Origin: Verrucomicrobiia bacterium
GTDB taxonomy: Bacteria > Verrucomicrobiota > Verrucomicrobiia > Limisphaerales > UBA1319
Direction of reading: 5' to 3'
Assembly: GCA_963664225.1 (NCBI GenBank)
Contig: OY760937.1
Location: 2,656,001-2,720,000, forward strand
Length of the DNA: 64,000 bases
Numbering within the stretch: the first letter of the stretch is position 1; each line of letters begins with the position of its first letter. A model generated the notes under the pieces. It was not told where the DNA came from, ran no database searches, and was given only the letters and a program-made list of their open reading frames with translations. Both the position numbers and the translations under genes were made by a program. This document shows, piece after piece, positions 44,099-48,671 of the stretch.

Positions 44099-45256
44099 CT
44101 ATCTCGATTTGCCGAGGGGGAACACGATATTCCACGTGCGCGTGGCATCCTTCAGGTCCAGGCCGGGACCTTCCGCAGTGGCGCAGAAAAGGTGCGTCGG
44201 GACGCCATTCTCGATGAGGAGCTGCGGGCGTTCGAGAAATCCCTGCCGTGTGGTGCGGCCATCGCTCCAGCGGACCTGCCGAGTGTAAGCGAGCGTGGCG
44301 TGGTCGAAATCCCACTGGAGACCGTCCGCGCTCGTAACGTGTACTCCGGCAAATTTTTCACCGCAAATCTCCCCCGTCATATCCTTCATCAATGCCTGCA
44401 CGCGGCCGTCCTCATGCCAGAGGAACGGATCTTCGACGTGCGCAGGCTGGCCGCGGAAGAGCCAGGGCGTGGGTTGACGCTTCCACGGGCCGGTATAATG
44501 TGGCGCGTGTGCGACGCCGACCTGAAGGTTGCCAAGGTTCTCCTTGCGCGACTTGTAAGCGAGCAGGAACGAGCCGTCGGGCAGGGGACAAAGGGAGGGA
44601 TTGGTGGTGGCGATGGTATCCCACTCGCCCGGACGCGGTTCGAGGAGCGGGGTGTCGAGCCGTTTCCAGGGGCCGCGCACGCTCTTACTCGTGGCCAGGC
44701 CGATGCGTTTGCGTGCCCAGGTGGCGAGGTAACGCGGCGAGCGCCACACTTCGGGAGCCTGCGACGTCGGCGTGGGGCCGTCGTAGTTGGCGCCCATGTA
44801 GAGCAACAGAAACGTATCGCCCACCTTGCGGATATGGGGATTATGCGTGCTGCGGGCATCGAAGAAATCACCACCGCGCGGGGGTAACGCGATCTCGGCG
44901 AAGCGATAAGGGCCAGCGGGCGTGTCGGACTGGGCCCGCACAATCTCCGACATGAAGAGCCAATGCGGATGAAAGGGCACGGACTTCGGCACGCGCGACG
45001 CGAAGAGGTGGTATTTGCCATCCTCGCCGCGGATGGGCGCGCCGCACCAGACCCAATAATCAGGCAACTCGAATCCGCCGCCCACAACCGCAGGCTCAAG
45101 GCGCGAGAGGAAGGTCCGGGGTGCGGCCGGGGTGTCGCGCGGGACGCCCGAACTGGCGGCCCAGGCGCCCGATTGAAAAATCAGCGGAGCGGTCACGGTG
45201 GCCGCGCTGCAATGCGTGAGAAAGGCGCGCCGGTTCATGGTGTCAGTAAAGGTCAT
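44099..45256 (-). CDS. Tat-exported five-bladed beta-propeller glycoside hydrolase (GH43-like)
   Basis: NRRAFL, WVWCG...DGKYHLFASR, HNP, EDPFLW, ERPQLL. Confidence 0.78.
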   Translation of the reverse strand: MTFTDTMNRRAFLTHCSAATVTAPLIFQSGAWAASSGVPRDTPAAPRTFLSRLEPAVVGGGFELPDYWVWCGAPIRGEDGKYHLFASRVPKSVPFHPHWLFMSEIVRAQSDTPAGPYRFAEIALPPRGGDFFDARSTHNPHIRKVGDTFLLLYMGANYDGPTPTSQAPEVWRSPRYLATWARKRIGLATSKSVRGPWKRLDTPLLEPRPGEWDTIATTNPSLCPLPDGSFLLAYKSRKENLGNLQVGVAHAPHYTGPWKRQPTPWLFRGQPAHVEDPFLWHEDGRVQALMKDMTGEICGEKFAGVHVTSADGLQWDFDHATLAYTRQVRWSDGRTTRQGFLERPQLLIENGVPTHLFCATAEGPGLDLKDATRTWNIVFPLGKSR

Positions 45257-45688
45257 GGTTTGAACTCCCGGATTCGCAGGTTCTTGAACTGCACCTTCAT
45301 CGGCGGGCCAGTGTGCACCTGGACGGCAAGCAGGCCTGAGAGGGCGCGCCTTGGGTCGTTGTCGCGCACTTCGCTCATCACAACATCGTTGATACGAAGA
45401 ACGACCAAATTATTACGCACGATGACATGGTATTCATTCCAGTCGTTATCCCGGACATCCTTAATCAGTTGCTTCGGGTCACCCACGGTGCCGGCATCTT
45501 TGCACTCCCCTTTTTCAGTGTAGAGGACTTTGCGGCCGCGTTCAGCCAGCTTTTCGCGCAGGAGGTATTCCATCACCACGCCCGTCCACACGTGGTCAGC
45601 GGACATGTCCGCCTGCACTCCGACAAGTGCCTCCGCCTTGCTGCCGGGCGCGCGTTCCTTGCTGTGAAAATAGATGCCGGAGTTCCCT
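45253..45688 (-). pseudogene. 3' fragment (DUF1080) of the ThuA-DUF1080 gene split by IS110
   Basis: GNSGIY, QAD, DWNEY, GLLAVQVH, VQFKNLRI are DUF1080 motifs; joins the 5' fragment in frame when the IS is removed. Confidence 0.9.
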
Positions 45689-45718
45689 TGTATCTGATTT
45701 TCCATCTATTCTTGTTTT

Positions 45719-45921
45719 GTTTGAAAAGACGGAATAGATGGAACTGTCCTGCCGCCTGCAGGCGGCAGGACAGTGGCGCGAACGAGCTCGCCATTCCCTG
45801 GCATTGGTTTACAGCCAAATGCGTCGGGAGCCAGAGCCGTTCGTGTCTGTGTCCTAAACTCGAACCGTTGCTTGAGCGGCCTACCAAGTCCTGCTCGTAT
45901 TTACAAGAAAGAGCCAGAACA
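45719..45921 (+). ncRNA. Predicted IS110 bridge RNA (ends approximate)
   Basis: 5' hairpin, then two stem-enclosed internal loops containing CCATTCCCT/CGGGAG (target-like) and ACCGTTGCT/TACAAG (donor-matching) segments. Confidence 0.8.
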
Positions 45922-45923
45922 CT

Positions 45924-46850
45924 ATGACCACTATCTACGCTGGCTTGGATATTGCCAAGCTGAGTCTTGATCTCCACCTGGCCGGTCGTTCCCACGATCT
46001 GCCCAATACCGCCGCCGGTCATCGCCAGCTCGTCGGACTCCTGGCGCAGCATCCGGGCGCTCACGTCATCTGTGAAGCCACGGGCGGCTATGAGCGTGAG
46101 GTGGCTGACGCCCTCCATCATGCCAGCATTCCTGTCAGCATCATCAATCCCGCCCGCGTCCGGCATTTCGCCCGCGCCCAGGGACAACGGGCCAAAACCG
46201 ACCGTATTGATGCCGCTGTCCTCTCCGCCTATGGGCAGGCCTTTGCCCCCAAACCCACGCCGGCGCGTTCCGAGGTGGAGGTGCAGTTGACCGAACTGGT
46301 TCGTCGCCGCAACCAGGTCCTTGAACTGCTCTTTGCCCAACGCAATCAGGCCGAACGCCTCACGCTGCCCAAGTTGCGCCGCCAGGCCCAGAGCTTGGTG
46401 CATCGTTTGGAGCGGGATGTGCAGGGAATCGAAACCCAACTCAAAGCGCTGCGCCAGAAAACCACAGAATTGGATGAGCGCGCAAAGAAACTCGAGGCTA
46501 TTACTGGGGTGGGCACAATTACCGCCTTGGCTGTTTTGGCTGAGCTGCCCGAGCTGGGCACGCTCAATCGGGGGCAGGCCGCCGCCTTGGCCGGACTGGC
46601 TCCACATCCCCGAGAAAGCGGGCAGTGGCAAGGCCGTCGCTCCATCGGTGGCGGAAGAGCCGCCGTTAGACGTGCCCTCTACATGGCTGCCATGGTCGCT
46701 GCGCGCTGCAATCGCCAACTCAAGGAGTTCTACAAACGACTCCGATCGGCGGGCAAGCCCGCCAAAGTCGCGTTCACCGCCGTCATGCGCAAACTCATTG
46801 TTCTGATGAACCAAATCCTCAAAAATCCACATTTTGAACTCTCAAATTAA
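45924..46850 (+). CDS. IS110-family DEDD recombinase/transposase
   Basis: GLDIAK, CEATG, KTDRIDA (DEDD), ITGVG, AGLAP-RESG (Ser), RRALYM, AVMRKL; intact 308 aa. Confidence 0.95.
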   Translation: MTTIYAGLDIAKLSLDLHLAGRSHDLPNTAAGHRQLVGLLAQHPGAHVICEATGGYEREVADALHHASIPVSIINPARVRHFARAQGQRAKTDRIDAAVLSAYGQAFAPKPTPARSEVEVQLTELVRRRNQVLELLFAQRNQAERLTLPKLRRQAQSLVHRLERDVQGIETQLKALRQKTTELDERAKKLEAITGVGTITALAVLAELPELGTLNRGQAAALAGLAPHPRESGQWQGRRSIGGGRAAVRRALYMAAMVAARCNRQLKEFYKRLRSAGKPAKVAFTAVMRKLIVLMNQILKNPHFELSN

Positions 46851-46861
46851 ATACCGTTGCT

Positions 46862-47973
46862 CCCTGCAGCTTATAGCAGCACTTGAGGTCAAACTCCGCT
46901 GGCTCTCCGTTGGTCCAGATAAGGAAGTTGTTCTCCGGGATGCCACCTTGTGGGGTAATGCCGGTGATGCAGCCACCCTGCACCGACCAATAGTTCGTGT
47001 CGCCACGCCAGCCACGGAGGTCCGTGCCATTGAATATGGGGACGAAACCCTTTTCCAAATCCGTCTTCGGCTGCGGCACCGGCTTTGTGTCTGCGGCCAA
47101 ATCGCCCAGTGCAAATTGCACCCCGTCCTGCAAAAGCCGAAGGAATGCAGGGTTGCTGAATGCACTCCTGTTGTGGCCGAGGGCTGAGTAAAAGCTGCGC
47201 CCATTTCCGCAACTTTGAATCCACGCCAGCGGATAGTCCTTGTCCGGGCGCTGGCCTTTATCCGCGGTCTCGCTCAGGTCGAGGCTGACCAGCACGCGCA
47301 CCTTTTCGCGGGCATACGGCGGCTCGAATTGAAACAGTTCATCCCGCCAGGGGAGTGGCAGCGCGCTCTTCCCGCCCCATGAGGCATTGAGCGGATGCGT
47401 TGGGTCTTCGACGCGAATGCTGGCGGGCTCCGACTCCCACGGGTGGTTGCGGAACCGCCCGCCGATGAGTTGGCGGAACTCCGCCTCCGTCGGATTGGCC
47501 GGGTCTTTTTCCCACACGCTCGCGCTGTGAATGCCGATAATTCCCTTGCCTCCGTGCACGAAATCAACGAGTGCCCGCATCCTGGCCTCCTCGGTCTCCG
47601 GCGGACCGAAGACGGTGAGCATGGTGTTGTTCATCACCACGGCATCAAATTCCCGCAACCGCACTGGCGTGAAGACGCTGGCATCGACGCTGGTGGTTGT
47701 CGTAAACGCGCCCGTCTTTTCCCCCATCAATTCCAAAGCGCGCGTGGCCCATGCGATGGCTTCGTCGTGGTAAGTCCCGCGAGTGAAGTTGTAGATGAGC
47801 AGGCGGTGCGCGTGGGCGGGCTTCGCCGTGGCATCGCCAGGGAGCTTCTGTCGCAAAAGTGCCACGTCCGCTTTAGTCAATTTTGGAAGTGCTCTTTCGG
47901 GATCAGCCCATAACGTGGATGGGGCAAGGCAGGTGGACAAATACAGCAGCAGCGTTGGAATCTTCATTGTCAT
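46862..47973 (-). pseudogene. 5' fragment of the ThuA-DUF1080 gene (signal peptide, ThuA domain, start of DUF1080)
   Basis: GKGIIGIHSA, DELFQF, GRSFYSALGH (ThuA); then PIFNGTDLRGW...FDLK. The ATG overlaps the GntR stop (ATGA). Confidence 0.88.
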
Positions 47974-48671
47974 GGTTTGGTAATTACAGAACGGCCAATG
48001 GAGGAGCCTGATTTTGAGCCACGTGAACGGTGCTGCTCCTTTTGCAGGAATTCGACGAGATGGTTCGAATGCGAAGCAAGAAAAGTCGAGGCGAGTTCTG
48101 AATTCCCACGGTCCAGCGCCTCCGCAATCGGCAGATGTTCGAGCGCAATCGCCACCGGGTCGGCGCTTTTCAGATAATCCATCGTAAACCGCGTGCGAAT
48201 TTGGAAGAACAGGGAGTCCCATATTTTCAACAGGACACTGTTGCCTGAAGCCTCGACAATGGCTCGATGGAAAGTCTGGTTATGTTCCTGAAAAGTCGCA
48301 AAATCCCCGCCCCGGGCTGCTTCCACGATGGATTCGGCTGCCTTTCGAAGCGTCTGGCAATGATGCTTTAATCGTAGCACCCCCTGTTTTGCGGCAAGCG
48401 CTTCAAGTGCCGCGCGCACTTGGAACGCCTCAATGGTTTCAGATGGGCTCGGATGTCGAACCGATGCGCCTTTGTTGTTCTGCGCTTCGAGGACGCCCAT
48501 GGCGACCAGTTCGCGAATGGCTTCACGAACCGGGGTGGCGCTGATGGCAAACTCCTTCACCAGCGTGATCTCCACCACACGTCGACCGGGCGGCAGATCG
48601 CCCCGGGCGATGCGGTCCAGCAGAGTGTCACGGATGAACTCGCGAAGCGACTTAAGGTGTGGCATGGGCAT
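47970..48671 (-). CDS. GntR-family regulator (FCD domain)
   Basis: ISATPVREAIREL HTH, RAALE, FHRAI...SGN, EH. Confidence 0.93.
   Translation of the reverse strand: MPMPHLKSLREFIRDTLLDRIARGDLPPGRRVVEITLVKEFAISATPVREAIRELVAMGVLEAQNNKGASVRHPSPSETIEAFQVRAALEALAAKQGVLRLKHHCQTLRKAAESIVEAARGGDFATFQEHNQTFHRAIVEASGNSVLLKIWDSLFFQIRTRFTMDYLKSADPVAIALEHLPIAEALDRGNSELASTFLASHSNHLVEFLQKEQHRSRGSKSGSSIGRSVITKP

Follow-up and report, generated by a model that had tools for sequence, protein, structure and literature searches.

Programmable tools that insert, excise and invert DNA are being actively developed from bridge recombinases, of which those of the ISCro4 / IS622 type are reportedly used for genome engineering. 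The closest described system to the one reported here is IS621, in which the bridge RNA is described as having a variable first loop and a conserved second loop, in each of which the 5' guide is same-sense and the 3' guide antisense (PMC11208160). In the published accounts, this RNA is transcribed from a sigma-70 promoter that is rebuilt where the right end of the element meets the left end (PMC11208160 / PMC11208158), and the catalytic residues of the recombinase are given as D11, E60, D102, D105 and S241-G242 (PMC11208158). Durrant et al. 2024 (PMC11208160) have predicted bridge RNAs in thousands of IS110 elements. IS1111-group elements, as the same paper describes them, carry their RNA in a long right end and have subterminal inverted repeats of 7-17 bp.

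We analysed 64,000 nt (the window) of a Verrucomicrobiia bacterium (Limisphaerales; UBA1319), taken from positions 2,656,001-2,720,000 of contig OY760937.1 in assembly GCA_963664225.1, a genome that consists of a single 5.78 Mb contig. Very probably, positions 45689-46861 of the window are an IS110-group element with an IS621-type bridge RNA encoded in the + strand of its left end and, after it, the gene for a DEDD+Ser recombinase. The element and its surroundings are laid out as follows, in window positions.

45680-45686, + strand: left target half-site (LT), GAGTTCC, followed by a copy of the CT core at 45687-45688; when it is joined directly to 46862 and what follows, the host open reading frame (ORF) is restored
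45689-46861, + strand: IS110-group insertion sequence, 1,173 bp including the right-hand CT core, with ends common to five genome copies
45689-45692, + strand: right donor half (RD), the terminal TGTA of the left end; core and RD together recur in the donor loop, as their reverse complement, at 45902-45907
45689-45923, + strand: non-coding left end, 235 nt, 5' of the recombinase gene and on the same strand
45924-46850, + strand: recombinase gene, 308 aa, with the Pfam domains DEDD_Tnp_IS110 and Transposase_20, an IS621 structure match and catalytic residues
46853-46859, + strand: left donor half (LD), ACCGTTG, followed by the CT core at 46860-46861
46862-46866, + strand: right target half-site (RT), CCCTG, adjoining the right-hand CT
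45253-45688, - strand: C-terminal piece of the interrupted host gene, with a 3-keto-disaccharide hydrolase domain at Pfam profile positions 65-187
46862-48222, - strand: N-terminal piece of the interrupted host gene, with a ThuA domain and then the same hydrolase domain at Pfam profile positions 1-64

The two CT dinucleotides, at 45687-45688 and 46860-46861, are the core on either side of the element. When 45689-46861 was deleted by script, one 598-aa minus-strand ORF resulted, reading ...KLQGGNSGIYF... across the joint; the empty site thus holds a single CT, one copy having been removed to restore the frame. The host gene is a fusion of a ThuA domain with a 3-keto-disaccharide hydrolase (DUF1080-type) domain, and its two pieces remain open and in register. 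From the restored ORF, together with the division of one Pfam profile into positions 1-64 and 65-187, it follows that the insertion is exact, with a CT on each side. An earlier note on this DNA, made from the letters alone, had proposed the empty target GAGTTCC-CT-CCCTG, which is right, and the donor junction ACCGTTG-CT-TGTA, both ends of which are found where it put them.

Both Pfam domains of the recombinase score above their cut-offs (DEDD_Tnp_IS110, PF01548, E = 1.6e-19; Transposase_20, PF02371, E = 3e-20), and among solved structures the protein comes closest to the transposases of IS621 (8wt6, E = 1.6e-37) and ISCro4 (9t56, E = 3.6e-37). In the alignment to 8wt6, residues D9, E51, D93 and D96 and an ESG motif with S231 stand opposite the IS621 catalytic residues. 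The 8wt6 match and the two domains agree with the idea of a compact 308-aa IS621 orthologue, and to call it intact is reasonable, since its reading frame is uninterrupted and the genome carries another, 100% identical copy. Relative to IS621, the protein is shorter (308 aa vs 326 aa) and the match is a distant one. With the ISCro4 / IS622-type protein (9t56), where the protein alone was compared, homology extends over nearly the full length; the window element differs from that system in coming from an environmental Verrucomicrobiota genome.

The overall layout is also that of IS621 as published (PMC11208160, PMC11208158), with the predicted RNA in a long left end that precedes the gene for a DEDD+Ser recombinase, a 5' stem-loop, a variable target-binding loop, a conserved donor-binding loop and a CT core. 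Unlike IS621, the window element has a right end that extends just 11 nt beyond the recombinase stop codon. IS1111-group seekRNA elements are described as sharing a DEDD transposase, an RNA-guided target and separate recognition of target and donor (Siddiquee et al. 2024, PMC11187229). Membership of the IS1111 group was ruled out, given the 11-nt right end, the RNA in the left end and the presence of only a 4-bp inverted repeat (ATAC...GTAT) bracketing the donor site.

Folded as RNA, the 235-nt left end reaches -103.9 kcal/mol, compared with -68.4 +/- 4.6 for shuffled sequences (z = -7.7). The putative bridge RNA would run, in order, through a clade-specific terminal hairpin, a 5' stem-loop, a target-binding loop and a donor-binding loop, with the following parts.

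45701-45742, + strand: terminal hairpin ('hairpin 1') of the minimum free energy (MFE) fold, 5' of the IS621-like part
45743-45774, + strand: 5' stem-loop with a perfect 14-bp stem (helix 1; 12/14 pairs with compensatory change)
45775-45847, + strand: target-binding loop (TBL) stem-loop, with outer stem 45775-45789 / 45834-45847 (helix 2; 96.6% of cells paired, 10/14 pairs compensatory)
45791-45799, + strand: left target guide (LTG), CCATTCCCT, which includes the core CT and has the same sense as the left flank
45801-45822, + strand: TBL inner hairpin, from the fold, with a hairpin at the same place in 25/25 aligned relatives
45823-45830, + strand: right target guide (RTG), GTCGGGAG, antisense to the core and right flank; its CGGGAG is 45825-45830
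45859-45913, + strand: donor-binding loop (DBL) stem-loop, with a short basal stem 45859-45861 / 45911-45913 (helix 5; 100% paired, nearly invariant)
45864-45872, + strand: left donor guide (LDG), ACCGTTGCT, which repeats the right end and core (46853-46861) letter for letter
45874-45896, + strand: DBL inner hairpin (helix 6; 99.3% of cells paired, 4/6 pairs compensatory), present in 25/25 relatives
45902-45907, + strand: right donor guide (RDG), TACAAG, the reverse complement of CT+TGTA (45687-45692)

These parts agree closely with what had been read from the letters. Both donor motifs, ACCGTTGCT as left donor plus core and TACAAG, do flank the hairpin at 45874-45896, and the target motifs, CCATTCCCT and CGGGAG, flank the one at 45801-45822 inside a loop closed by 45775-45789 / 45834-45847. 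The claim of an IS621-type layout with a CT core is borne out by the fold, by covariation and by the CT on both sides. The span proposed for the RNA, 45719-45921, needs correction at its start, which falls inside the loop of the terminal hairpin (45701-45742); the IS621-like part extends over about 45743-45913. The statement that all four guides are readable also holds, with the qualification that the target guides match the insertion site in the window only in the 9 bases of and next to the core.

Comparison with relatives supports this structure. A protein match at E <= 1e-40 was found in 27/301 sampled genomes of the same order, the source genome counted, and named MAG contigs of Verrucomicrobiota supplied nine of the relative loci. 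For 26 left ends, RNAalifold predicted 34 pairs, 26 of them with compensatory change. In the hand-completed structure on 25 left ends, 92.7% of cells are paired, compared with 38-42% when the 3' partner is slid by 1-3 columns, and 33 of the 46 pairs show compensatory change, spread over four helices; no shuffle out of 500 reached any of these measures. The covariation across related IS110 left ends that the earlier note had named as a check is therefore present. A hairpin stands between the two guide segments of each loop in all 25 relatives. Cells with G:U number 57 against 26 with A:C, an excess that favours an RNA of the + strand. Because the relatives are kin, the shuffle tests overstate independence, a concern from which the slid-partner controls are free. 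The 25-sequence alignment leaves out L055, whose first loop MAFFT misplaced, L030 and L046, which have deletions there, the sister copies A2, A4, A5 and B2-B5, which have the same guide loops, L063, which has the guides of L038, and duplicate fetches. A longer DBL basal stem, pairing columns 117-122 with 206-209, was dropped at 74.4% of cells paired; by eye, both sides of the DBL basal stem of L055 are unlike those of the other relatives. The target module is damaged in two relatives, L046 (G080:C9) and L030, the latter having lost the 3' half of the target loop. At L043 (G207:C84), CC rather than CT follows the right end and an atypical left terminus is also preceded by CC, so that this locus may have a non-CT core or be a decayed copy.

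The terminal hairpin is a departure from IS621, since it adds a conserved hairpin between the left terminus and the 5' stem-loop that is absent from the three-part layout as published. When its helix was drawn by hand on 20 relatives, 74.9% of cells were paired, compared with 41-51% with slid partners. RNAalifold predicted no pairs in the first 60 nt of 20 left ends, where the alignment is poor. The comparative support for this predicted hairpin is moderate. It contains several G:U pairs, and no run of T lies 3' of it. Conceivably it is transcribed with the rest of the RNA and serves a separate function, for example in gating expression from the circle junction or as a switch between excision and insertion.

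The donor guides can be compared directly with the element's ends. Within the 64-kb window, the 9-mer ACCGTTGCT occurs only twice, in the donor loop and at the right end; the shuffle expectation is 0.48 copies, and at least two copies arose anywhere in 7/100 shuffles. The match of the donor loop and the architecture of the window copy are more than chance. Among relatives the LDG is nearly invariant, and so are the right ends; the T(G/A)TAT terminus is likewise kept. In two or three relatives the donor guides change jointly with the ends: LDG and right end both read ACCATTG in L057 and ACAGTCG in L055, and in L054 a left terminus of TATA (not TGTA) is paired with an RDG of TGTAAG (not TACAAG). 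A further likeness to the published IS621 RNA is that an invariant C after the RTG core complement could pair with an invariant G at donor position 7, as a handshake guide. The corresponding pairing on the donor-loop side was rejected, as the bases after the RDG misfit target position 7.

For the target guides, we asked how far they agree with the flanks of 33 insertion sites. Guides were taken from fixed alignment columns, and flanks were located through the conserved terminus and the right-end copy of the donor guide, blind to the target guides. The LT score counts LTG identities with the 7 bases left of the core, and the RT score compares the reverse complement of the RTG with the 6 bases to the right. 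Four sites drop out for LT (L026 and L064, where the contig end cuts the flank, and L040 and L043, with an unrecognisable terminus) and six for RT (L029 and L041, with flanks of <8 nt, and L031, L042, L045 and L052, at loci without a right end). Over all sites, the observed LT total is 130 (n=29), compared with 71.4 +/- 6.7 when permuted, and the RT total is also 130 (n=27), compared with 61.0 +/- 6.3. With one site per distinct guide, the totals are 91 for LT (n=21; permuted 51.1 +/- 5.7) and 86 for RT (n=18; permuted 36.6 +/- 5.1). In each of the four comparisons, 0/20,000 shuffles were as high. Agreement is strongest near the core: the share of matches from -7 to -1 is 0.28, 0.41, 0.55, 0.86, 0.79, 0.79 and 0.79 on the left, and from +1 to +6 it is 0.96, 1.00, 1.00, 0.74, 0.70 and 0.41 on the right. 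Some LT scores are poor in the fixed register (L057 0/7, L051 2/7, L054 2/7); slid by one base, L057 fits at 6/7 by eye. The predicted first loop is thus variable and tracks the insertion flanks, and covariation of guides with targets and donors in homologues, whose absence the earlier note would have counted against an RNA guide, is found both here and, for the donor side, in L055, L057 and L054.

The window copy itself matches its site partially, with 4/7 for LT, 2/2 for the core and 4/6 for RT, where the CT and the bases at +1 to +3 agree, and the match is confined to 9 bases around the core. Non-cognate flanks score as well as its own in 3/20 cases for LT and 3/17 for RT. Since the window copy's own match is no better than such flanks give, the assignment of the target loop rests on the family-wide evidence.

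The source genome holds five copies of the window element. We call the window copy A1; A2 is 100% identical to it over 1,173 bp at another locus, and A3-A5 are 92-94% identical. Between A1 and A3, 77/1,173 positions differ, and these are concentrated in the target guides, with 10/17 positions changed there and 67/1,156 elsewhere (Fisher p = 1.1e-8). In the A3-A5 variant, 7/9 LTG positions and three RTG positions are changed, and the flanks follow the guides: A1 and A2 stand at ...TCC-CT-CCC... and A3 and A5 at ...CTT-CT-CCT.... At A4 the right side of the flank fits and the left is poor, and A2 shows the same kind of partial target match as the window copy. A1 and A4 are in unique DNA. A3 and A5 lie inside a dispersed palindromic repeat with >30 unoccupied copies, and A2 lies inside another repeat with 19. 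The unoccupied repeat copies bridge the junctions of the sister copies A2, A3 and A5, and because most of them show a single CT, the element boundaries are confirmed independently. The repeat preferred by A3-A5 is about 100 nt long, often tandem, with an 8-bp-arm palindrome, and its 15-nt core has 32 exact copies (G000:C1); the A3 and A5 repeat sites are at 1738419 and 3173222 (G000:C1). The A3 recombinase gene has one in-frame TAG (G000:C1 1738654-1739577), and A5 is 18 nt shorter (G000:C1 3172068-3173222); the frames of A1, A2 and A4 are open.

A second IS110-group family in the genome, family B, behaves in a similar way. It comprises five nearly identical 1,197-bp copies with about 70% DNA identity and about 56% protein identity to the window element (L006-L010; BLAST-match spans, in that order, G000:C1 2332285-2333289, 3487278-3488282, 2578189-2579193, 2568954-2569958 and 1761766-1762770). 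Each copy lies in a REP-like palindrome of which 12-29 unoccupied copies bridge the junction, and the right target guide of the family matches CT plus 5-6 flank bases in 5/5 copies. Insertion of the window element's sister copies into palindromic repeats is a further likeness to IS621 as described. The siting of A2, A3, A5 and family B also resembles that of ISPpu9 / ISPpu10 of Pseudomonas putida, IS110-family elements described as targeting repetitive palindromic intergenic stem-loop sequences (PMC12288879; bioRxiv 10.64898/2026.03.19.712850). The window copy instead sits in unique coding sequence.

This difference in siting bears on how the window insertion itself came about. The window copy lies inside a gene, probably at an off-target-like site with a partial match to the guides. 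A related reading, which would refine rather than replace the bridge RNA reading, holds that the RNA is real but that its target loop did not direct the window insertion, an off-target or 'half-match' event that depended mostly on recognition of the core and the donor side; we give it somewhat less than an even chance. It is in keeping with a match limited to 9 core-adjacent bases, and with the position of the window site in unique coding DNA, when A2, A3, A5 and B1-B5 are in dispersed repeats with 12-34 unoccupied copies. There are also 65 genomic sites within 2 mismatches of the guide-encoded 14-mer, compared with 5 mismatches at the window site, and half-match insertion by IS621 has been reported (in the account of bioRxiv 10.64898/2026.08.31.748434). 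A perfect 14-mer target was found nowhere in the genome for any of the three guide sets. On the other hand, the outer LT positions match in 28-55% of cases across the family, compared with 79-86% for the four nearest the core, so that a 9-base core-proximal match may be the clade's normal need and the window insertion on-target; the identical copy A2 is also only partially matched.

In comparison with IS621, natural flank matching in the window's clade is concentrated in about 4 + 2 + 3-5 core-flanking bases. It is conceivable, if on balance unlikely, that the clade uses a modified bridge RNA, with the extra terminal hairpin and with target recognition by about 9-11 core-flanking bases. Were this so, the element, at 1,173 bp and with its 11-nt right end, would be among the most compact natural bridge systems.

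Transcription was approached through sequence searches. The window's clade differs from IS621 in having no clear junction promoter: across the window element's right-end/left-end junction, no sigma-70-like promoter scored >=8/12, the best being 7/12, and the promoter scan of 45500-47000 found none on the + strand. In 10/25 computed junctions (relatives and sister copies), a 7-9/12 candidate occurs at one fixed geometry, with the -35 at -20 to -22 (some 21 nt into the right end) and the -10 from +2 (left-end bases 3-8). RNA started from these candidates would begin immediately ahead of the terminal hairpin. No candidate has this geometry in the window's clade, where 7 extra right-end bases break the spacing. 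The only promoter-like site in 45500-47000 is on the minus strand at 45930-45958 (9/12, with 0.4 expected in shuffles), and it points from the start of the recombinase gene backwards into the donor loop. An Rfam 15 scan of 45400-47100, with E up to 10, gave chance-level hits only (miRNA models on the 45743-74 palindrome), and no family gave a meaningful match to the left end. Neither the circle junction nor the empty-site joint occurs in the assembled contigs of four out of 23 public runs that were examined. The lone RNA-library contig, matching 46101-46330 with 8 differences, is part of a relative's recombinase gene and does not include the left end.

It could be supposed that the window copy is a dead relic, with guides that can still be read in an element that no longer moves. 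The circle junction and empty site missing from those contigs fit this, as do the in-frame TAG of A3 and the shortened A5, but the window copy retains an open 308-aa frame with all catalytic residues and is identical over its full 1,173 bp to A2 at another locus, and the host gene pieces, still open and in register, point to a recent insertion; we consider a relic improbable. Far less credible still is that the left end is just a structured 5' UTR, or a group of DNA sites bound by protein, with guide-like matches that reflect DNA-level homology between ends and targets and no RNA guide, since, although the contigs of the four public runs yielded no transcript and the promoter scans no clear promoter, compensatory pair changes fall in four helices with G:U cells outnumbering A:C, the guide segments lie >100 nt inside the element and obey the published rule of 5' same-sense and 3' antisense, and two bridge recombinases whose solved structures include their RNA are homologues of the protein.

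On the sequence level, then, the window element has the features of an IS110-group bridge RNA system. Transcription of the RNA, its binding by the protein and catalysis are what we infer from the likeness to IS621. By the IS621 model, excision would yield a circle whose two ends are joined, right to left, through a single CT. This joint would be the donor site, to which the donor loop pairs, with the target loop pairing to the genomic site; a recombinase tetramer would then exchange strands at the CT core. That copying has been recent is clear from the identical second copy, A2. For the host, the element accounts for the split ThuA/hydrolase gene in the genome annotation.

For the family, the element is an expected further member of the IS110 bridge RNA group, a kind known since 2024 and here understood as Durrant et al. 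2024 and Hiraizumi et al. 2024 define it. The element is an ordinary case of what Durrant et al. 2024 predicted, as set out in PMC11208160, and leaves the general picture unchanged. Each well-defined natural orthologue enlarges the set that can be screened, and the window element is compact, with parts mapped base by base. It also comes with a natural control: the genome contains sister copies whose target loop is different and whose insertion sites differ to match, so that two guide variants within one genome form a ready-made natural reprogramming pair.
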